A DNA stretch of 64,000 nt, taken from the sequence record OL631479.1. One strand, given 5' to 3'. The stretch comes from Escherichia phage ECML-10. The notes under the pieces are model-generated. The model had not been told where the DNA came from and searched no databases. It was given only the letters and a program-made list of their open reading frames with translations. Of this stretch, positions 2,689-61,354 are shown piece by piece (positions within the stretch are counted from its first letter, which is position 1; every line of letters begins with the position of its first letter). A program made the position numbers and the translations under genes.

Positions 2689-5600
2689 TTACTTCAGTTT
2701 CTCTTGCAACCCAGTAACAACCTCTGTCAATTTTTTAACCTGCTCCTCAAGGGCGGTTATTTTATCGTCCTGTTCCCTGCAAACCTGGACAAGCAAGCCT
2801 GTTACGGCTGCGTAATCCACGCTGTAGAATCTTTCCTCTGTTATCAAAGGAGTTCCATCTTGATCAGGGTTTGGGATTTCCTTTCTTTGCACGAAAGAGC
2901 TAACTGCTTCCGGCAGCGCTTCAAGCACTTCTTGTGCTATAACACCTGCATAAGGCATACCGTTCTCTTTAAGAGTGTAAGTATAACCCTTCATCTTCCG
3001 GATAGCTTCTAACGCATCAGGAATAACAGATATGTTGTCTTTCAGGTCTCTGTCAGAGCTCTGATTGACAGATGTGCAATTCACAGCACCGTTTACAGAA
3101 AGATATCTTGATTTATCCGGCAAGGTACCGCAATGCCATACCCAATTTGCTTGAGACTCGTCAAGAACCTTAAACTCTAACACGTTTGGACGATCCCCTG
3201 TGCTGCCGTTACCCCAATAGTGCATATGGGCGGCATTAGCAGGCATGTTGCCACCGTTATTAGTAACATGGCTTCCAGAAATATATACCTTTAACTCTGA
3301 GGTCGGTATTTCCCCTTCGGGAGTTGTTCCTCCATATCTGAAGCTAACACCATTGCCACCTGTTTGGGTCCACGGGCCCCAAGTGAAGGTTTGTCTCACC
3401 ATATTACCATAACGTATAAATCTATCGCCGTGATAGGTAATATACTCTTGAACACACCCATTACCGTTATTGGCGTTATTCTGCAACACAATAAGTGTTC
3501 CAGCTTCATTTACCGGATAATGACGATCATATGTTGCATCATTATTTGCCGATTGATGGTAAATGCCTTCCCACAACCCATTATAGGTGTCAAGGTCTGA
3601 GGTACCGAGACCCTGACCCCTGTGCTGCATAGCCTTATTCCAGGGGTGGTGATTACCGCCTTCTATAGACCTGGTGTATAAGTTACTTTGTCTGCCAGCA
3701 ATCTGGAAAGCGTAGTTTCCCGAGAATCCTACAGATAAACCTCCTACAACCATGGTGTCTTGTGGACCGTTAACATTACCAGCCATTATTTTTGACGGGT
3801 TATTAGGCCCGAACTGGTTGTTCCAGTCTCCACCAGTATGACATACAAAACCACCTGGGGCTGAAAAAGTACCATCCTTATTGAAGTTGTAGAATCTATG
3901 AGCTGTGCCCACAACATCTCGAACAATAACTTGACCAGCCTCTGGAGTAGACCTGAACTCTGCTTGACCTTTAAGGCCAGCACCATTACCGCATTTAGAG
4001 GTAAACGTGCCGTTAGTTAGATCCTCTGTTCCATCTGATGCACACTGGAATCCTGCGTTAGAGAATAGCGCCTTTCTAGGACCACTGTAGCACAAATAGT
4101 CAAAACCGTCAGCCCATAGCTCTACTTTAGGCATGTTCATTTTGCTCATTATCGCATAGCGTTCAGCAGTGCCTATATAGTGCCACTGTGTGCCGCCGCC
4201 AGTGTAGAACCCAGAGGTACCTTTGAAGTCAACAATAGGTCTGGTGTTGGTATTGTTATCTCCGAGAACAGCCAGATTTAAATCTGCTGACTGGAGAGGT
4301 GCAACGAACTTAACACCGTCCTGATTGTCTGTTACAGAGCCAACCTGGTAATCTTGCTCCCTGGTAAACACCTCGACAACATTTCTACTTGCGTATATGC
4401 TGACAGGGAAAGCACGCGCCTCTGCATAGAAAGCAACATATTCTTGTTTACCCCTTGTTGGAGCAACCATCCCAAGAAGTGCTTTTTCATTCTGGTAGAA
4501 ATTTACTACCCCGTAGAAAGAGTCTCCTCTGTCTGTCCAACCACCAGTTCTATAGTGACACTGTAAGGTAGCACAGTTCATAGGGTCATTTCCAGATGAC
4601 GATCTGGTAACTATGGTAATATCAGTACCAGTTGCTGGAGCATAGTACGGATCTGTTCTAACGATGATCGGGTAGTATTTCCCATCTTCCATCCCTGCGG
4701 TTCTTGGCAGTGTTAAGAAGTCTTTCACACCTGCTGCTATAGGAACTTTGAACAGATTCTGAGCATCTGCTAGAGTTGTAGCCCCGGTGCCACCTGCGGC
4801 TTGAGGTAGAGGTTCCCACTTGGCCTTCCGGTTGTTATAAACACCCCATTCCAGAGTGCCGTTACCGGATTCGTCCATCCAGCCATCCCAGATAACCATC
4901 TTGGCGGCTTTCTTAGATCCCCAGAAGCCTCTTTCTGCTCCTGAACTACGTATCCACTCTCCAAGTCCCCAGTTTGTCAGCTGACCAGTAAGATCCCCAA
5001 CCTGCATGTATTTAGGGCAGTCTAATACACCGTCTTCGCGGAAACCCAAATATCTATGAGTTTCAGATCCTTTTGCACCTTTGTGGAGGTGGATTGTCAA
5101 CCAAGCCTTATTGTCGTTTCTTACCTCAGAGTAGATCCTATATCCATGCTCAAGGACACCGTCAGCGCTGTATTTGTCCCCGTTAACAATACCGGATGCT
5201 GACTTAACATCAGCAGAACTTTGAGACAGGTAAAGGTGCCCGAAGGTAGGAGAATTTCTAGACCCGAGACCGATGTGCGATCTAAAGGTATCATCGTTAC
5301 GAGGTCTAACCATCGGCTGCCATGCAGTCCACTGATTTGTGTTGGCCTGATAGGTTCTCAAATACCAAACATCTACGTTAGAGAATGGGTAGTATTCCTG
5401 ACGACAACCTGTACCGCCGTTAGCATTGTTCTGCCAAACAATCAAGTGACCAGCACCAGAACCTGCAGGGTAACCATTTGCCTCAGTTGCATAAGCAGTC
5501 ATCGGCTGGTAGTATACACCATCCTGATTACCAGTCAAGTTATTGATATTGAAATTTGGCTCAAGGGCTGCACGTTGCTTATAGAAAGCACCGATATTGA

Positions 5601-54560: not shown

Positions 54561-54839
54561 ATGAGCTGCGAAAAATCTTTTTTCATCATCATTTACGGTA
54601 AGGATAACTGCCCACATTGTGTCAGAGCAAAAGAATTTGCAATCAGCAAAGGTCTGCCTTTTGTATATAAGACACTTGGCGAGGGCTACACAAAAGAAGA
54701 GCTTATTGAGAAGTGTAGTCCAATCGTCCCCCGAACGTTGCCGCAGATCTTCTTAGAAAGCGATCTTGACAGTATCCATATAGGCGGTGCCGACGATTTC
54801 ATCTCTTTTGTTAAGAATGGTTTTGGAGAGAAAAAGTGA
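54561..54839 (+). CDS. Glutaredoxin-like protein
   Basis: 92 aa; CPHC redox motif; between nrdB and nrdD. Confidence 0.75.
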   Translation: MSCEKSFFIIIYGKDNCPHCVRAKEFAISKGLPFVYKTLGEGYTKEELIEKCSPIVPRTLPQIFLESDLDSIHIGGADDFISFVKNGFGEKK

Positions 54840-55699
54840 AAGTTGTAAAACGGGACGGTAGAGAAGAGTTCTATAACGGAATTAAGGTGATCAAGGCGGC
54901 AGAGTCCGCCTTATTTGAGTCTGGACATACTGAAGAAGAAGCTTACCGGATCGCCTGCGAGGTTAATGAAGTTGTTGCTAACAATCTACCAACCGACCAG
55001 TGCACGATCTCTGTAAAAAATATCCATATCCTTGTTGAAGACGCTCTTATGGATATGGGTTTAAAATGTGCAGCCAGAGAATACATCCAGTATAGGCAGA
55101 CAAGAGATAATAACAGAGAGGCAGGTGGAAAACTGCTCGCAGATATTAGTGGCTTCTTGGATCGCACTTGTGATGAATTTACAAAAGAAAACGCAAATAA
55201 GCCTACCAATCATGTACACACTCATCGTGACCTGCTTGCAGGCATCCTTAGCAAACACCTTGCATCAACACAGATCCTGCCAGACCGTGTCTCAGAAGAG
55301 CACAATAAAGGCTTCATCCATGTGCATGATCTTGACTACTTGATCAGTCCGTTAACAAACTGTTGTTTGGTAAATTATCCAGATATGTTGGAAAACGGAT
55401 TCAACATTGGTAACGCCCATGTCAGTAAGCCGAAGTCAATAGGGGTTGCAACAACAATCCTTAGCCAAATCTCTAGTGCGGTAGCTAGTGCTCAATATGG
55501 GGGTCAGACTATGAGCCATATTGATCATTATCTGGCACAGTATGCTGAAGCGACCTATGAGAAGAACCTTAAATTTTGCCAGGAACATTGGTTGCCAGAT
55601 GCTGAGACTGTTGCAATGCAAATGACAGATAAAGACGTATTTGACAGTATGCAGACATTACTTTATCAAATCAACACGTTAACCTCTGTCAACGGTTAA
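54836..55699 (+). CDS. nrdD: Anaerobic ribonucleotide reductase NrdD, N-terminal part (putative exon 1)
   Basis: ATP-cone-like N-terminus MKVVKRDGREEFYNGIKV; ORF ends at in-frame stop presumably inside intron. Confidence 0.75.
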   Translation: MKVVKRDGREEFYNGIKVIKAAESALFESGHTEEEAYRIACEVNEVVANNLPTDQCTISVKNIHILVEDALMDMGLKCAAREYIQYRQTRDNNREAGGKLLADISGFLDRTCDEFTKENANKPTNHVHTHRDLLAGILSKHLASTQILPDRVSEEHNKGFIHVHDLDYLISPLTNCCLVNYPDMLENGFNIGNAHVSKPKSIGVATTILSQISSAVASAQYGGQTMSHIDHYLAQYAEATYEKNLKFCQEHWLPDAETVAMQMTDKDVFDSMQTLLYQINTLTSVNG

Positions 55700-56547
55700 C
55701 AAACTGGCCGTTGTAAAACTCTCCTAACCTCATAAGAGGGGTCGGTAAATCCGGCTAACGGGGAACGCTAAGGCGAAAGCTATGCCAATCCCGTGACTAG
55801 TTCTTACAGGAGTTGGAACGGTTGTAACGACTAACGAAAGGCAGAGATGCTTGACAAACATTTCTGAACCAAGTAGTGTAGGGGTTAGTTGAAATACTAA
55901 CTTCGAAATGGAGAGGCTCTATGAAAAAGATCATTCTTAATGGTGAAGAATCAAACTATGTGATTGATGAGGTTGGAAACGTATACGGAAAACGTGGAAT
56001 GCTACACCCAATATTGTGGGGAGGTTATGGAAAAGGTAACAAGCATGTTAAACGCCGTTATATGTACTCTTTCAACCACAAAGGTAAAAAGATTCGAATC
56101 CAAACCTCAAGGATTGTTGCCTTGTATTGTTTGCCGGATGTCCCAGAAGACCCTGAAAACTGGGAAGTGAATCATAAAGATGGCAATACATTGAATGATC
56201 ATCCGTCTAACCTAGAGTGGGTTTTGCCGGAAGATAATAAGAGACATGCTTTCCGAACAGGACTTTGTCCAGGTAAGTGCTATAGGAAAGTGCAGGCATA
56301 CAAAGGGAAAACCTTGGTGGGTGAATATCCTTCACTCTATGCCTGTGCAAAAGCCTTAAATTTGAACGTAGGTAACGTTCATAGGGCTATCGAAGGAAAT
56401 GCCGAAGGTAAGCATCTCACAATAAAGGGTTATTATCTTATTGAAGTAGAGTAAGAGATAGTCTGGCCCTGTGGAAACACAGGGAGGAGACAGCAGACTC
56501 CATTCATCACATTAAGTTTAGGACTGGATACCTCGGTCTTTGGTAGA
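55700..56547 (+). other. Putative group I intron in nrdD carrying an HNH ORF
   Basis: ~850 bp between the two nrdD parts with ~220 nt structured leader before the HNH ORF. Boundaries approximate. Confidence 0.5.
55921..56454 (+). CDS. HNH homing endonuclease (intron-encoded)
   Basis: 177 aa; HNH motif VNHKDGNTLNDHPSNLEWVLPEDN. Confidence 0.8.
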   Translation: MKKIILNGEESNYVIDEVGNVYGKRGMLHPILWGGYGKGNKHVKRRYMYSFNHKGKKIRIQTSRIVALYCLPDVPEDPENWEVNHKDGNTLNDHPSNLEWVLPEDNKRHAFRTGLCPGKCYRKVQAYKGKTLVGEYPSLYACAKALNLNVGNVHRAIEGNAEGKHLTIKGYYLIEVE

Positions 56548-57756
56548 ATGATTACCAAAAACTACTTGAAAGTCCACAAAATGGGTCTTGGTGAAGAACG
56601 TATCACACCTGTGTTCCCTAAAGTGCTGTTCTTCCTAGAAGAGGGTGTCAACATGAACCCTGGAGATCCTAACTATGATTTGAAACGATTAGCTCTGGAA
56701 TGCTCTGCAGAGCGGATTTATCCTGACTTTGTTTCTGTTCCACTAAATCGTAAAGTGACAGGCTCGACAGATGGTAAAGTAACGAGCATGGGTTGCCGGA
56801 GTTTTCTTAGCAAATACAATGACTTGGAAACAGGCGAGGAGAAATACCTTGGTAGATTTAACTTAGGCGTTGTTAGCCTTAACCTGCCAATGATTGCGGC
56901 AAAAGCTAAGACGGAAGGTGTTGATTTCTTTGCCGTTCTTGACGAGTATCTGGATTTGGCATATGAAGCTCACCTTGTAAGGGTTAACCGTCTGAAAGGC
57001 ACCAAAGCAGGGCAGAACCCTATCATGTGGTGTGAAGGCGCTCTTGCTCGCCTGGATCCTGAAGAGAGTATTGATAAACTCTTCTATGACGGGTACGCTT
57101 CCATCAGTATTGGGTATATTGGTGTGTATGAAACCTGTCAGATTTTGGGCAGGGAGGGTGACAAGGCTTTAGCTCTTGGAATACTTCAGCACATGAGAGA
57201 TGCTTGTGAGCGATACAAGAAGGAAAGTAGACTAGCGTTTAGCTTGTACGGCACCCCTTCTGAGAGTCTATGCTATAAAGCTGCAACCTGTCTGGATCGT
57301 GAATATCCTGAAGTGTTGAAGCACGAGCATGAATATCTCACCAACAGTTTCCATCAGCCAGTATGGATCAATAGCTCTCCTTTTGATAAGTGGGAGTATG
57401 AGGAAGGTTTTGCTATGATCTCCTCTGGTGGCAACATCGGATACGTAGAGACACCAAATCTGAAAAACAACTTAGATGCTTTGGAAGCTCTTGTTGATTT
57501 CGGATATAAACACATTATGTATTTTGGTATCAACCAGCCTGTGGATAAATGTCTCAAGTGTGGTTTCTCTGGTGAGTTCAGTGCAACAGCTAAAGGCTTT
57601 GTATGCCCAGAGTGCGGAAACCATGAAGAGGGAACGATCAGCGTAATTCGACGTGTGTCTGGATACCTTTCCAGTCCTAACTCTCGTCCTTACAATAAAG
57701 GTAAGCAAGCGGAAGTTATCGAGCGAGTTAAGCACTACGGAAGTTGTGGTTGCTGA
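56548..57756 (+). CDS. nrdD: Anaerobic ribonucleotide reductase NrdD, C-terminal part (putative exon 2)
   Basis: Glycyl-radical motif RRVSGYLS near C-terminus; Zn-ribbon CLKCG...CPECG. Confidence 0.8.
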   Translation: MITKNYLKVHKMGLGEERITPVFPKVLFFLEEGVNMNPGDPNYDLKRLALECSAERIYPDFVSVPLNRKVTGSTDGKVTSMGCRSFLSKYNDLETGEEKYLGRFNLGVVSLNLPMIAAKAKTEGVDFFAVLDEYLDLAYEAHLVRVNRLKGTKAGQNPIMWCEGALARLDPEESIDKLFYDGYASISIGYIGVYETCQILGREGDKALALGILQHMRDACERYKKESRLAFSLYGTPSESLCYKAATCLDREYPEVLKHEHEYLTNSFHQPVWINSSPFDKWEYEEGFAMISSGGNIGYVETPNLKNNLDALEALVDFGYKHIMYFGINQPVDKCLKCGFSGEFSATAKGFVCPECGNHEEGTISVIRRVSGYLSSPNSRPYNKGKQAEVIERVKHYGSCGC

Positions 57757-57822: not shown

Positions 57823-58950
57823 GTGTCCAGAAAACTTACAACAGATGAGTTTATAAAGAGGGCAAAAGCAGTTCATGGAGATAAGTATGATTACTCTAAG
57901 GTTGAGTATGTAAATGCCTGCACCAAGGTTATAATTATCTGCCCATATCATGGAGAATTTGAACAAGCTACCCACCAACACCTTGCAGGACGAGGCTGCC
58001 GGGAATGTGGAAAGCTAAAAATGGCACAAAGCCACATTATACCACATAAGGAGTGGTTGAATGTTATCCAAGAGGTCAATCCTTATGTCGAAGTGATTGG
58101 AGAAATAATAAGCTGCAGAACAAAAGTGCCGTGCCGCTGCAAAATTTGCAGTCATGAATGGTCAGCAATGCCTTATCTTCTTAAACAAGGACATGGGTGC
58201 CCTAGATGCGGCAAGCTAAAATTCGCACAAAGCAGAGCTATAGCCCATACCGAGTGGGTCGAGGACATAACGAAGAAAAATACATATATTGAAATAGTAG
58301 AAAGGGTTAAAAATAGCGATACACCAGTATTGGCACGATGCAAAATTTGTAGTCATGAATGGTTAGCAAGACCATCCCATCTTAAACGAGGGCATGGGTG
58401 CCCTAGATGTAAAGGCAATGCAAAGAGATCCCATGTGGAATGGGTAGGGCATATAAAGGTTGTCAATCCAAGTATTAAAGTGCTTGGAAAAATTAAAAAC
58501 GGCAGTGCAAAAGTATTATGTAGGTGTAAGATTTGTGATTATGAATGGTCTCCTGCTCCTATTAGGCTCAAGCAAGGACATGGGTGCCCTAGATGTGCTA
58601 ACTACGGCTTTTTATCGTACAATCACGGCAAACTTTACATTATGGTTGATGACTTAGAAGTACCAACACTTATGAAGATCGGTATTAGCGTCAGTGTCGA
58701 AGAGAGAAAAGATAGGATATTGAAAAGTGCCAAAAGGGCAGGGGTAGGTATTTATGATCTCTACCTGGCGAAAACGTGGGAAGGATCAACTCAAAACATG
58801 GCAGATTTAGAAAAATCTGTGCATAAGGCCTTCAGCAAGTATAAAATAAACTTCCCTGTAAAATTTGATGGTAGCACAGAATTCTTCTACTACAGGCCTG
58901 AAGTGTTTGACACGGTGGAAGAAGTATACAGGAAGATTTGTGGTAAATGA
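57823..58950 (+). CDS. Zinc-finger repeat protein with C-terminal GIY-YIG/T5orf172-like domain (putative nuclease)
   Basis: Four ~60-aa repeats (C-x-C-K-I-C...HEW...GHGCPRC) also visible as nucleotide repeats; C-terminal KLYIMVDD...MKIGIS; GTG start. Confidence 0.35.
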   Translation: MSRKLTTDEFIKRAKAVHGDKYDYSKVEYVNACTKVIIICPYHGEFEQATHQHLAGRGCRECGKLKMAQSHIIPHKEWLNVIQEVNPYVEVIGEIISCRTKVPCRCKICSHEWSAMPYLLKQGHGCPRCGKLKFAQSRAIAHTEWVEDITKKNTYIEIVERVKNSDTPVLARCKICSHEWLARPSHLKRGHGCPRCKGNAKRSHVEWVGHIKVVNPSIKVLGKIKNGSAKVLCRCKICDYEWSPAPIRLKQGHGCPRCANYGFLSYNHGKLYIMVDDLEVPTLMKIGISVSVEERKDRILKSAKRAGVGIYDLYLAKTWEGSTQNMADLEKSVHKAFSKYKINFPVKFDGSTEFFYYRPEVFDTVEEVYRKICGK

Positions 58951-59002: not shown

Positions 59003-59119
59003 ATGTCATCGGGTATCTATAAAATCTGCAAGTGCGGTTGTCATTGTAATCTTCGTTGGTGCAAGGCACTGGACGATTTTATTTGGCATTGCCCTAAATG
59101 TGATGCGGAGTATCTATGA
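59003..59119 (+). CDS. Small Cys-rich zinc-ribbon-like protein (38 aa), not in ORF track
   Basis: RBS AAGGAGG 7 nt before ATG; MSSGIYKICKCGCHCNLRWCKALDDFIWHCPKCDAEYL; stop overlaps nrdG ATG. Confidence 0.4.
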   Translation: MSSGIYKICKCGCHCNLRWCKALDDFIWHCPKCDAEYL

Positions 59120-59589
59120 ACATTGCCGGATACACAGAAATATCTTACACCGAAGGGCCAGGTATTAGAACTGCCTTATGGGTATCTGGGTGCCCACACG
59201 CCTGCCCTGGTTGCTTTAATCAGGCATTTTGGTCAAAAGATAAAGGAAGAGAGTTCACTGAAGAAGACTTGCAAAAAATCTTGTCAGATTTAGATAACCC
59301 GTCTGTGTGCGGTATCTCTCTGCTGGGTGGAGAACCCTTAGCATACTATAATGAGCCAGATATTATTAACCTGATGGAGAAAATTAAGGAAAAATTTGGT
59401 GACAAGAAAACTATTCTTGTATATACTGGGTTCACATTTGACCATATCTCTAGCGATGTTCTTAAACTGGCTGATATCATCATTGACGGTAAGTATGTAA
59501 AAGATTTACCAACCAAGAAACCGTTCCGAGGTAGCGATAACCAAAGAATGTTTAAAAAAGTATCAGGCGGTTGGGTTCAGGTAGACTAG
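59116..59589 (+). CDS. nrdG: Anaerobic ribonucleotide reductase activating protein NrdG
   Basis: 157 aa; radical-SAM CxxxCxxC motif CPHACPGC. Confidence 0.8.
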   Translation: MNIAGYTEISYTEGPGIRTALWVSGCPHACPGCFNQAFWSKDKGREFTEEDLQKILSDLDNPSVCGISLLGGEPLAYYNEPDIINLMEKIKEKFGDKKTILVYTGFTFDHISSDVLKLADIIIDGKYVKDLPTKKPFRGSDNQRMFKKVSGGWVQVD

Positions 59590-59592
59590 TTG

Positions 59593-59622
59593 TTGACAAA
59601 GCTTTGTTTAGATAGGTATAAT
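59593..59622 (+). promoter_or_regulatory. Sigma70-like promoter (TTGACA-N18-TATAAT)
   Basis: Consensus hexamers; same family as 42251, 50346, 60986. Confidence 0.6.
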
Positions 59623-59653
59623 TATCGTAAAATGAAAGCAGAGGAGGTGCCAA

Positions 59654-59767
59654 ATGGCTAAAAAAGCCTTGAAGAAGGCGTACAAGAAAGAGATTGCGCT
59701 TGAGCTTAAGAAAAAACACAAGCGTGAAAAGAAACATCATGAGGATGAAGAGGGGGTGCAACAGTGA
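59654..59767 (+). CDS. Small Lys-rich basic protein (37 aa), not in ORF track
   Basis: RBS GAGGAGG; MAKKALKKAYKKEIALELKKKHKREKKHHEDEEGVQQ; stop overlaps GTG start of next ORF. Confidence 0.35.
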   Translation: MAKKALKKAYKKEIALELKKKHKREKKHHEDEEGVQQ

Positions 59768-60114
59768 CACAAGAACGTATCGATTTGGCTAATAAGTTTG
59801 TAGATCTCATTTTGCCACGGTTAGTTACTCAACATGCAGACGCTATTTCTACTAATCTTGATGGCTTACGTCTAATGCTAAATCGCACAGATGACCCTCG
59901 TATTCGGGCTGATTTAGAAGCCTCTGCCAACAAACTGGAAAAGTTCTTGCAAGTAGATACGCAAGAAGCCTTACACAAGATTATGGTGGAAGGTTTCTCT
60001 AAAGAATTTACCATTAAAGAGCTTAAGGAGCTGATCCACCAAGAAGAGATGAATATCCGAGTTCAGGCTGTTGCAAGCAGCATGGAGGCGGCTATTGAAA
60101 AACTGTTGCAGTAA
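59764..60114 (+). CDS. Hypothetical protein
   Basis: 116 aa helical ORF, GTG start. Confidence 0.3.
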   Translation: MTQERIDLANKFVDLILPRLVTQHADAISTNLDGLRLMLNRTDDPRIRADLEASANKLEKFLQVDTQEALHKIMVEGFSKEFTIKELKELIHQEEMNIRVQAVASSMEAAIEKLLQ

Positions 60115-60152: not shown

Positions 60153-60941
60153 ATGGGTCGAGCTAAAGAAACAAAACGCATGCGTGATGAAGCTAGAGAG
60201 GCTCGCAAATCTGATCGCCTGCGTAAGGCTGCTGAGAAATTTGCTGACGAACGAGAGCACACCGCTCCAGCTCTCCGACCAATGAATAAAAAGCAGCAAA
60301 AGTATCTTGATTATCTAGGGTCACGTAAGATTATTATTGTAAACGGTGTGTTTGGATCCGGTAAGACATTCATGGCATCTGCATATGCAGGTGATCTTCT
60401 GCGTAAGAATGAGATTGATAAGATCATTGTTGCACGTCCTTATGTACAGACCGGAAAATCAAGCGGATACAAACCGGGAACGTCAATGCAGAAGCTTTGG
60501 CCTTACCTTCGTAGTATGATGGACACGATTTGTCGTCGTGTTGGCAAAGGTGCTTTTGCCGCAATGCTGGGAGACGGTCAGAACAGCCGTATCGAGATTT
60601 GTGAAGTTGAAAGCATTCGTGGTCGTAGTTTCGATGAGCGATGCTTTGTCCTGATTGACGAGGCACAGCAAACTAACCCTGAAGAAATGTTGTCAATTAT
60701 CACAAGGATCTCTGATCAGGCCACCCTTGTAATTATGGGCGATAATAGCCAACGTGACATCCCTGGTAAATCTGGCCTTGCATGGGTGACGGATTTCTTT
60801 ACTCGTCATCCAGATCCTGAGGTTGGAATGATCAGCTTTGATAGTCCAGACGATGTCGTTCGTTCCGGGTTGGGTCGTCAGATTGCACTCAATCTTATTG
60901 AGGATCGTGCAAATCATATTTGGACCCCTGTTTCCGAGTAA
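60153..60941 (+). CDS. phoH: PhoH-like ATPase
   Basis: 262 aa; Walker A GVFGSGKTF and PhoH-like downstream motifs. Confidence 0.85.
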   Translation: MGRAKETKRMRDEAREARKSDRLRKAAEKFADEREHTAPALRPMNKKQQKYLDYLGSRKIIIVNGVFGSGKTFMASAYAGDLLRKNEIDKIIVARPYVQTGKSSGYKPGTSMQKLWPYLRSMMDTICRRVGKGAFAAMLGDGQNSRIEICEVESIRGRSFDERCFVLIDEAQQTNPEEMLSIITRISDQATLVIMGDNSQRDIPGKSGLAWVTDFFTRHPDPEVGMISFDSPDDVVRSGLGRQIALNLIEDRANHIWTPVSE

Positions 60942-60985: not shown

Positions 60986-61014
60986 TTGACAAATAGGCAA
61001 GCTTTAGATATTAT
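60986..61014 (+). promoter_or_regulatory. Sigma70-like promoter (TTGACA-N17-TATTAT)
   Basis: Follows hairpin 60947-60967; -10 context GATATTATTATCGG resembles promoter at 42251. Confidence 0.55.
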
Positions 61015-61041: not shown

Positions 61042-61354
61042 TATGGCCACAATACAAGAGAAACTGAATAAAATATACTGCCTGTTTGTCTATAACGGCG
61101 AGACAATTTTGGCATATAAAGGATCCAAGAATGTATGGATCAAGGACAGTGGTGGTAATATAATCAATTTAGCGTTGCTACGTGAGCGCCGACACAGATT
61201 CTTTATCGAGTCTAGAATTATTGAAAGTAGTACCTGCTACAGAACAGGCGATAAAGTAATTGTTGACAATGATACGTGGTATGTGGTAGACTGGCAATCA
61301 TTGAGCTGTGATGCTTCTGACAATCGTAAGTACTCTATAGTGATTGCTAAATAA
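61042..61354 (+). CDS. Hypothetical protein
   Basis: Start ATG 61042 with RBS AAGGAGAAGG downstream of promoter. Confidence 0.3.

Follow-up and report, generated by a model that had tools for sequence, protein, structure and literature searches.

Behind a consensus promoter in Escherichia phage ECML-10, between the genes for an anaerobic ribonucleotide reductase activase and a PhoH-like ATPase, lies an ORF of only 37 codons. The question raised by this locus is whether the ORF encodes a small protein that acts through its amino acid sequence or is a leader whose translation serves the gene that follows. The window analyzed is a stretch of 64,000 nucleotides from this phage (OL631479.1), which is of the rV5-like coliphage type (Vequintavirus), and coordinates refer to this window unless another genome is named.

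The ORF is gene 118 of the rV5-like phages

The ORF occupies 59654-59767 on the plus strand and encodes a small basic protein, MAKKALKKAYKKEIALELKKKHKREKKHHEDEEGVQQ. A Shine-Dalgarno (SD) sequence, GAGGAGG (59641-59647, plus strand), is read directly 6 nt before the ATG and is annotated as the ribosome-binding site in phage Murica. The TGA stop codon (59765-59767) overlaps the GTG start codon (59764-59766) of the next ORF, which encodes 116 residues (59764-60114), as GTGA. The first-pass annotation had described the ORF, a promoter at 59593-59622, the SD sequence, and the overlap of stop and start codons, and all four are present in the sequence.

It had also called the ORF unannotated, which is not the case. 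The identical 37-residue protein is annotated in many Vequintavirus records, including those of Murica (gp173, YP_009593950), JES2013 (ORF110, AGM12499), and AlexBoehm (bas56_0177, QXV75728), where it is a hypothetical protein, and the 37-residue protein is annotated also in S127 BCL3, HdK5, and FV3 (ORF110). The rV5 genome paper lists gene 118 at 88875-88988 with a product of 37 residues (4482 Da, pI 9.8), followed by gene 119 (116 residues) and gene 120 (PhoH-like) (Kropinski et al. 2013, PMC3606486). Its promoter table, compiled by visual inspection, includes P118 at 88816-88845, TTGACAAAGCTTTGTTAAGTTGGTTATAAT (PMC3606486, Additional file 4). The ORF is already known: it is rV5 gp118, a member of the PHROG 7670 family, behind the published P118. 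The window gene and rV5 gene 118 have the same length, the same place between nrdG and gp119/PhoH, and the same promoter architecture. Nothing material differs between them; the differences are a few bases in the promoter spacer (TTGACAAAGCTTTGTTAAGTTGGTTATAAT in rV5 against ...TTTAGATAGG... in the window).

The locus returned 120 matches among phage records at 90-99% nucleotide identity, nearly all of them to Escherichia phages of the genus Vequintavirus (rV5, Murica, JES2013, FFH2, FV3, and the BASEL phages Bas48-59). A set of 19 records within MG065635-MG065684 ("Campylobacter phage A142, C12, D1 …") is labelled as Campylobacter jejuni phages and is 97-98% identical to the E. coli rV5-like phages here. 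The host label is doubtful because the records are flagged UNVERIFIED and carry no annotation, and it is probably wrong or the result of contamination.

Literature searches for Vequintavirus and Vequintavirinae found no transcriptome or ribosome-profiling data, and a search on the functional genomics of phage EdH4 found nothing on the gp118 gene. With virion-internal or DNA-condensing basic peptides in mind, the rV5 virion mass spectrometry lists were consulted; the protein is absent from them, where the trypsin fragments of a protein so rich in lysine would mostly be too short to detect. Beyond the existing annotation, the present analysis adds only evidence of selection and a domain layout: strong purifying selection on the peptide and its three-part architecture, set within the subfamily-wide distribution of the gene and the recurrence of its promoter.

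A consensus promoter precedes gp118

The upstream neighbor is nrdG (59116-59589, plus strand), which encodes the anaerobic ribonucleotide reductase activase and whose stop codon ends 3 nt before the -35 hexamer of the gp118 promoter. The promoter (TTGACA-18-TATAAT, 59593-59622, plus strand) matches the sigma-70 consensus at 12 of 12 positions and is the equivalent of rV5 P118. It is the only perfect match in the 64-kb window, where 0.03 are expected, and one or more such matches arose in 3 of 100 dinucleotide shuffles. Transcription is predicted to start near 59629-59630, which would leave a 5'UTR of about 24 nt. The -35 hexamer, the -10 hexamer, and the SD sequence are invariant among eight Vequintavirus genomes, which differ from one another at no fewer than seven positions in the spacer and the beginning of the 5'UTR. 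Invariant hexamers around a varying spacer are the pattern expected of a working promoter.

The comparison was extended to the homologous genes of eight lineages. A promoter-like site with at least 10 of 12 matches lies upstream of the small gene in five of them. At the Seunavirus-like locus a promoter-like site is found inside the nrdG coding sequence, and the Hena1-like phages (the Henunavirus copies) have no promoter upstream of the small gene. The SD sequence is of the AGGAG type in seven of the eight lineages and is GAGGA in the IMG/VR contig L007.

No terminator-like hairpin was found between nrdG and the promoter or on the plus strand between 59622 and 60941, the end of phoH. A long rightward transcription unit comprising genes 82-163 has been proposed for rV5. 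Because a promoter is present and terminators are absent around the gp118 gene, the gene would belong both to this long unit and, as the first cistron, to an internal promoter-driven unit of gp118, gp119, and phoH. The PhoH-like ATPase gene (60153-60941, plus strand), annotated as PhoH-like in relatives, is probably the third cistron of the internal unit.

Other signals were seen around this unit. In Proteus phage Mydo (L004, 2271-2295) a 7-bp GC-rich hairpin, CCTGCCG…CGGCAGG, lies between the -10 hexamer and the SD sequence of the small gene, and a hairpin of the same length, also GC-rich, CCCGGCC…GGCCGGG, occupies this position in metagenomic contig L014 (~2951-2975). This element, which is not present in the Vequintavirus 5'UTR, could stabilize or process the mRNA. 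Just 3' of phoH are a near-consensus sigma-70 promoter (60986-61014, TTGACA-17-TATTAT, 11 of 12 matches) and a second promoter with an extended -10 TG (61263-61292, TTGACA-18-TAGACT, 10 of 12), which suggests that the region is split into several short promoter-driven units.

Neighboring genes

Genes at the locus run in the order split nrdD, an endonuclease-like ORF, a 38-residue cysteine-rich ORF, nrdG, gp118, the 116-residue ORF, the PhoH-like ATPase, and a ClpP-like protease. The nrdD gene (54836-57756) is apparently divided into an N-terminal ORF (54836-55699) and a C-terminal ORF (56548-57756) about 850 bp apart. The gap contains a 177-residue ORF (55921-56454) and a sub-threshold Rfam match to a group I intron (56197-56484; 27.7 bits against a gathering score of 50, E = 7e-4), and the AlexBoehm nrdD CDS is annotated as a join of two pieces. 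The nrdD gene of phage T4 carries a group I intron with a homing-endonuclease ORF, and the split seen here is likely an arrangement of this type.

Between nrdD and the 38-residue ORF, a 375-residue ORF (57823-58950) fills about 1.2 kb; the same two genes are about 63 nt apart in Murica, JES2013, and AlexBoehm. It has three treble-clef zinc-finger repeats of the DUF4379/CapR type (Pfam E = 3e-16) and a C-terminal T5orf172 domain (4.5e-11), and probably represents a mobile, free-standing gene, similar to those of homing endonucleases, that was inserted into the window phage. The 38-residue ORF itself (59003-59119, MSSGIYKICKCGCHCNLRWCKALDDFIWHCPKCDAEYL) has eight cysteines, the look of a zinc ribbon, and a stop codon that overlaps the nrdG start. 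It is a hypothetical protein in JES2013 and AlexBoehm; Murica has a terminator annotated there and no gene. A Pfam search with it gave no match.

Selection acts on the gp118 peptide

The gp118 sequence matches phrog_7670 (E = 2e-20), with residues 1-37 aligned to profile positions 1-37 of 46. Homologues of 32-52 residues occur across the Vequintavirinae genera, in phages of Escherichia, Klebsiella, Proteus, Salmonella, Cronobacter, and Erwinia. When 5.8 billion proteins were searched with a profile whose first sequence was a 46-residue member, 29 homologues of 37-52 residues were returned. Eight hits, all of them stand-alone proteins of 32-49 residues, were the whole yield of an HMM scan run exhaustively on 1.84 billion cluster representatives; the family is thus narrow and is never fused to a larger protein. 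A tblastn search with the 46-residue member located the gene in 73 further phage records, whose hosts are Klebsiella, Salmonella (PVP-SE1 gene 144), Cronobacter, Erwinia, Enterobacter, Raoultella, and Proteus. In Mydo a 46-residue ORF (MSKKALRKAYTKELALELR…) stands directly before the gp119 homologue, as does a 49-residue ORF (MSKRTLRKAYQKELAMALR…) in Hena1. The L007 copy is more divergent (MSKKSRKAKRAYDKEFKLEIKR…) and overlaps the gp119 homologue as ATGA.

A 37-codon ORF is not significant by itself because the surrounding 7 kb contains 101 ORFs of at least 25 residues. Its significance comes from conservation, in that the frame is open in all eight lineages and the peptide is kept although third codon positions are saturated. 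In codons 2-20 of seven lineages, all 19 third positions vary, compared with nine first and nine second positions. Synonymous divergence over these codons (pS = 0.33-1.0) is at or near saturation, compared with a pN of 0.02-0.35. The sense frame is the only frame open in all eight lineages; an antisense ORF of 72 residues (59552-59770) is open in the window and interrupted in four of the eight. No Rfam family matches the locus at E values up to 0.1. The saturated synonymous sites, the sense-only open frame, and the negative Rfam result indicate that selection acts on the peptide rather than on an RNA or DNA element. The first-pass annotation had proposed conservation as a check on the ORF; it is conserved across the Vequintavirinae genera, with selection at the protein level. 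The ORF is almost certainly a real, translated gene, and the peptide sequence itself is very probably its functional product.

gp118 consists of a conserved, predicted helix and a variable tail

The family alignment divides into three parts: an N-terminal segment, a Lys/Arg cluster, and an acidic cluster followed by a variable tail. The N-terminal segment (codons 1-20, 59654-59713, plus strand; family consensus MSKKTLRKAYQKELALELR) is under the strongest selection. Its motif, M-[AS]-K-[KR]-x-L-[KR]-K-A-Y-x-K-E-[IL]-A-[LM]-x-L-[KR], is matched by the window sequence MAKKALKKAYKKEIALELK, and Leu6, Lys8, Ala9, Lys12, Glu13, Ala15, and Leu18 are invariant in alignments of 26-27 members. The C-terminal part (codons 21-37, 59714-59764, plus strand) is variable and consists of a basic cluster, KHKREKKHH, then an acidic tail, EDEEGVQQ, with an A6 run prone to insertions and deletions. 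The variable tail beyond the acidic cluster is not present in the Vequintavirus copies. Every lineage has a net charge of +5 to +7, with about +10 over residues 1-29 followed by -1 to -4.

Given the family alignment, AlphaFold2 models the peptide as one continuous helix, with pLDDT values of about 90 for residues 1-20 and of 65 and then 53 beyond them. The short basic helix of the first-pass annotation is supported by this prediction. Leu6, Tyr10, Ile/Leu14, and Leu18 form a hydrophobic i/i+4 stripe along the N-terminal helix. Three of four representatives have a hydrophobic moment that does not significantly exceed that of shuffled versions (p ~0.2 for the window peptide), and the label of amphipathic helix was dropped for this reason.

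Other members of PHROG 7670 have the same layout. Mydo gp133 (46 residues), Erwinia phage Hena1 gp045 (49 residues), Salmonella phage PVP-SE1 gene 144, and GEC_vB_MG gp156 (46 residues) share with gp118 the N-terminal 20 residues, the basic and then acidic clusters, a net charge of about +6, and a site after ribonucleotide reductase/glutaredoxin genes and directly before a PHROG 7650 protein. They differ in an extra C-terminal segment of 9-15 residues (…LMQLVADAAARGxY or …DFGFVxQxxxNQWxxxxG) that the Vequintavirus copies lack and, in their genera, in a GH19 endolysin between the partner ORF and PhoH.

The A6 run (59703-59714, in AAGAAAAAACAC) is the site of two variants in public assemblies. 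P0019 has two additional lysines and a length of 39 residues. P0029 is frameshifted into the +1 frame, ends in RTYRFG at 45 residues, and occurs in contigs of up to 137.8 kb. These may be homopolymer sequencing errors, or natural slippage or loss-of-function alleles that lose the basic/acidic tail. The frameshifted variants, together with the Vequintavirus copies that lack the C-terminal segment, suggest that part of gp118 is dispensable or that the gene is non-essential. Fusion of the helix to gp119 by a programmed -1/+1 frameshift at the A6 run was rejected, since the gp119 frame contains seven stop codons before the GTG and the other frame ends at 59792.

Searches of Pfam (E up to 10) and NCBIfam with gp118 gave no match, and no known family of small basic nucleic acid-binding or ribosomal proteins in Pfam, NCBIfam, or the PDB matched significantly. 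A likeness to the C-terminal extension of the RXR DNA-binding domain (YQKELA(L/M)…R…ER) was the best PDB profile hit at E = 0.47 and was judged to be chance. Sequence comparison found no homologue of known function for either gp118 or gp119.

gp118 is coupled in position to gp119 and is better conserved

The 116-residue ORF downstream of gp118 (59764-60114, plus strand, GTG start) encodes an acidic, all-helical homologue of rV5 gp119 and belongs to phrog_7650 (E = 2.5e-57). AlphaFold2 predicts four helices with a pLDDT of 93.8, and a fold search with this model gave no informative match. One helix of gp119 carries a conserved LAxEFxxLxxPR motif. Pfam near-hits (tail chaperone, S30AE, and others) had E values of 0.016 or worse, far below cut-offs, and were discarded. 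The label "calcyclin-binding protein" attached to the gp119 homologue of phage Mangalyan was likewise set aside, the PDB match having a non-credible E value of 0.29. The Klebsiella and Proteus phages of Mydovirus and the Erwinia phages of Henunavirus encode distant homologues with 26-29% identity.

The order of ribonucleotide reductase/glutaredoxin genes, small gene, PHROG 7650 gene, and PhoH gene is found in the window, Mydo, Hena1, L007, and L013-L015. Seven of the eight lineages have a gp119 homologue next to the small gene, and the helical ORF in this position encodes about 110-140 residues. In every lineage PhoH comes after the gene pair; in all but Vequintavirus and L007 a GH19 endolysin separates the two. 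The junction between the small gene and the downstream ORF is tight throughout, between the extremes of an 11-nt overlap and a 10-nt gap, and the net charge of the downstream protein is -1 to -10 across lineages.

The eighth lineage, metagenomic contig L016, has a 109-residue ORF (3155-3484) at the gp119 position. Its product is helical and acidic and is not detectably a member of PHROG 7650 (hhalign probability 1.5%). Over residues 1-20 the L016 peptide shares 95% identity with the Seunavirus-type peptide. Pairwise identity between lineages is 0.44-0.95 for the first 20 residues of gp118 compared with 0.19-0.54 for gp119.

Proposed role of gp118

We lean toward the view that gp118 is not a mere leader but a real small protein, with its conserved N-terminal helix as the functional binding element. 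In the mechanism that we propose, the consensus host sigma-70 promoter directly after the ribonucleotide reductase genes would drive the short gp118-gp119-phoH unit, and the near-ideal SD sequence would probably make gp118 abundant while host sigma-70 RNA polymerase is in use, in early/middle infection. The protein would work as a peptide, a single helix with a specific, strongly constrained binding surface made up of its first ~20 residues. This surface would be the Leu6-Tyr10-Leu/Ile14-Leu18 stripe flanked by Lys/Arg side chains, with the Lys/Arg cluster and the acidic tail free to vary. The helix would dock on a macromolecule that is conserved across enterobacterial hosts or across the phages themselves, be it a nucleic acid or nucleoprotein machine or a conserved phage protein, and the basic patch would add electrostatic affinity. 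gp118 may then work with the co-translated, acidic, helical gp119 and possibly with the PhoH-like ATPase.

Two options are live for the binding partner. gp118 could be a small subunit or cofactor of gp119, and perhaps of PhoH, which is favored by their adjacency in the other seven lineages and by the complementary charges of the two proteins. Alternatively, it could bind a conserved host or nucleic acid target independently. This second option is somewhat favored because residues 1-20 are much more conserved than gp119 and because the peptide is kept in L016, where the neighbor has no detectable homology to gp119; this L016 neighbor also speaks against the two proteins forming an obligate complex. 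Joint action with gp119, in a complex or module, is advanced as a tentative possibility. The charge alone makes direct binding to nucleic acid, which the first-pass annotation had also suggested, plausible; homology lends it no support, and we regard it as doubtful.

An effector of host takeover would go further along the independent route: the helix would modulate a conserved host machine, such as the ribosome, RNA polymerase, a nucleoid protein, a protease, or a division protein, without gp119. Lambda CIII, lambda Kil, and T7 gp0.4 are small early phage proteins that form a single helix and act on host machinery. gp118 resembles them in size range, predicted single helix, and host-type promoter; there is no detectable sequence relationship, and the analogy is a lead and not a result. 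A helix far more conserved than the neighboring phage protein in phages of at least six host genera, kept where the neighbor gene is replaced, and made as a stand-alone small protein free of fusions from a strong host-type promoter and SD sequence would suit such a role. The absence of similarity to known effectors in Pfam, NCBIfam, and the PDB weighs against it, and the conserved adjacency to the downstream ORF suggests instead a role internal to the phage. We judge this reading to be rather unlikely, and the narrower form in which the N-terminal helix is a new kind of minimal effector acting on an Enterobacterales-conserved machine (e.g. the ribosome, RNA polymerase, or a nucleoid protein) to be a little less likely still.

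Translational coupling of overlapping ORFs is common in phage operons. The first-pass annotation had offered this as the second role for gp118, a leader peptide coupled to the next gene, and such a peptide would itself be functionless: the strong SD would deliver ribosomes to the gp119 GTG through the GTGA and so set the expression of gp119 and PhoH. The gp118 ORF is like coupled upstream ORFs and leaders in being short, in its strong SD, and in the 4-nt overlap with a weak GTG start, and the junction stays tight in all lineages. Leader peptides that act by translation only, however, have unconstrained amino acid sequences, and a pure coupling ORF does not need the strong purifying selection seen on residues 1-20. 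A role that is independent of sequence is unlikely because these residues are nearly invariant even though synonymous sites are saturated. An SD-like GAGGGGG (59750-59756) belonging to gp119 lies 7 nt upstream of the GTG. The ORFs of L013 and L016 are separated by 8-10 nt, with a separate ribosome-binding site for the downstream gene, and the L016 peptide is kept though the downstream ORF differs. Attenuation leaders have a terminator/antiterminator or stalling structure, whereas the plus strand has no terminator-like hairpin between 59622 and 60153, and the 4-nt overlap leaves no room for an attenuator between gp118 and gp119. In regulatory leaders the peptide is free to vary, or only the regulatory codons or an arrest motif are kept; in gp118, 19 consecutive residues are kept across genera. 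The pure leader reading is disfavored on these grounds and is, in our estimate, quite improbable. gp118 may nevertheless couple translation in addition to its function as a peptide; a role as an arrest peptide is formally conceivable.

An incidental frame in a spacer rich in A and lysine codons, or an RNA or DNA site such as a 5'UTR or regulatory element, could be entertained given the 101 ORFs in 7 kb and the open antisense frame, but by sequence criteria this reading is effectively refuted by the codon-position pattern, with nucleotides diverging at every third position and the peptide kept, and by the frame comparison, in which the antisense frame is broken in half of the lineages, together with the negative Rfam search and an SD conserved at the right distance.

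The preferred reading, a small protein with a conserved binding helix, bears on a group of phages in practical use. Cocktails for biocontrol and therapy make wide use of the Vequintavirinae (rV5, PVP-SE1, the Klebsiella Mydovirus group), phages in which the majority of genes lack a functional assignment. If true, the minimal-effector form of the proposal would explain both why the helix evolves more slowly than gp119 and why it persists where gp119 has been replaced. The gp118 gene is a subfamily-wide core gene with the best promoter in the region, and its 20-residue segment is more conserved than most of the neighboring proteins. Because a 20-residue synthetic peptide is cheap to make and test, gp118 offers a tractable entry to what may be a new phage-host or phage-internal interaction.
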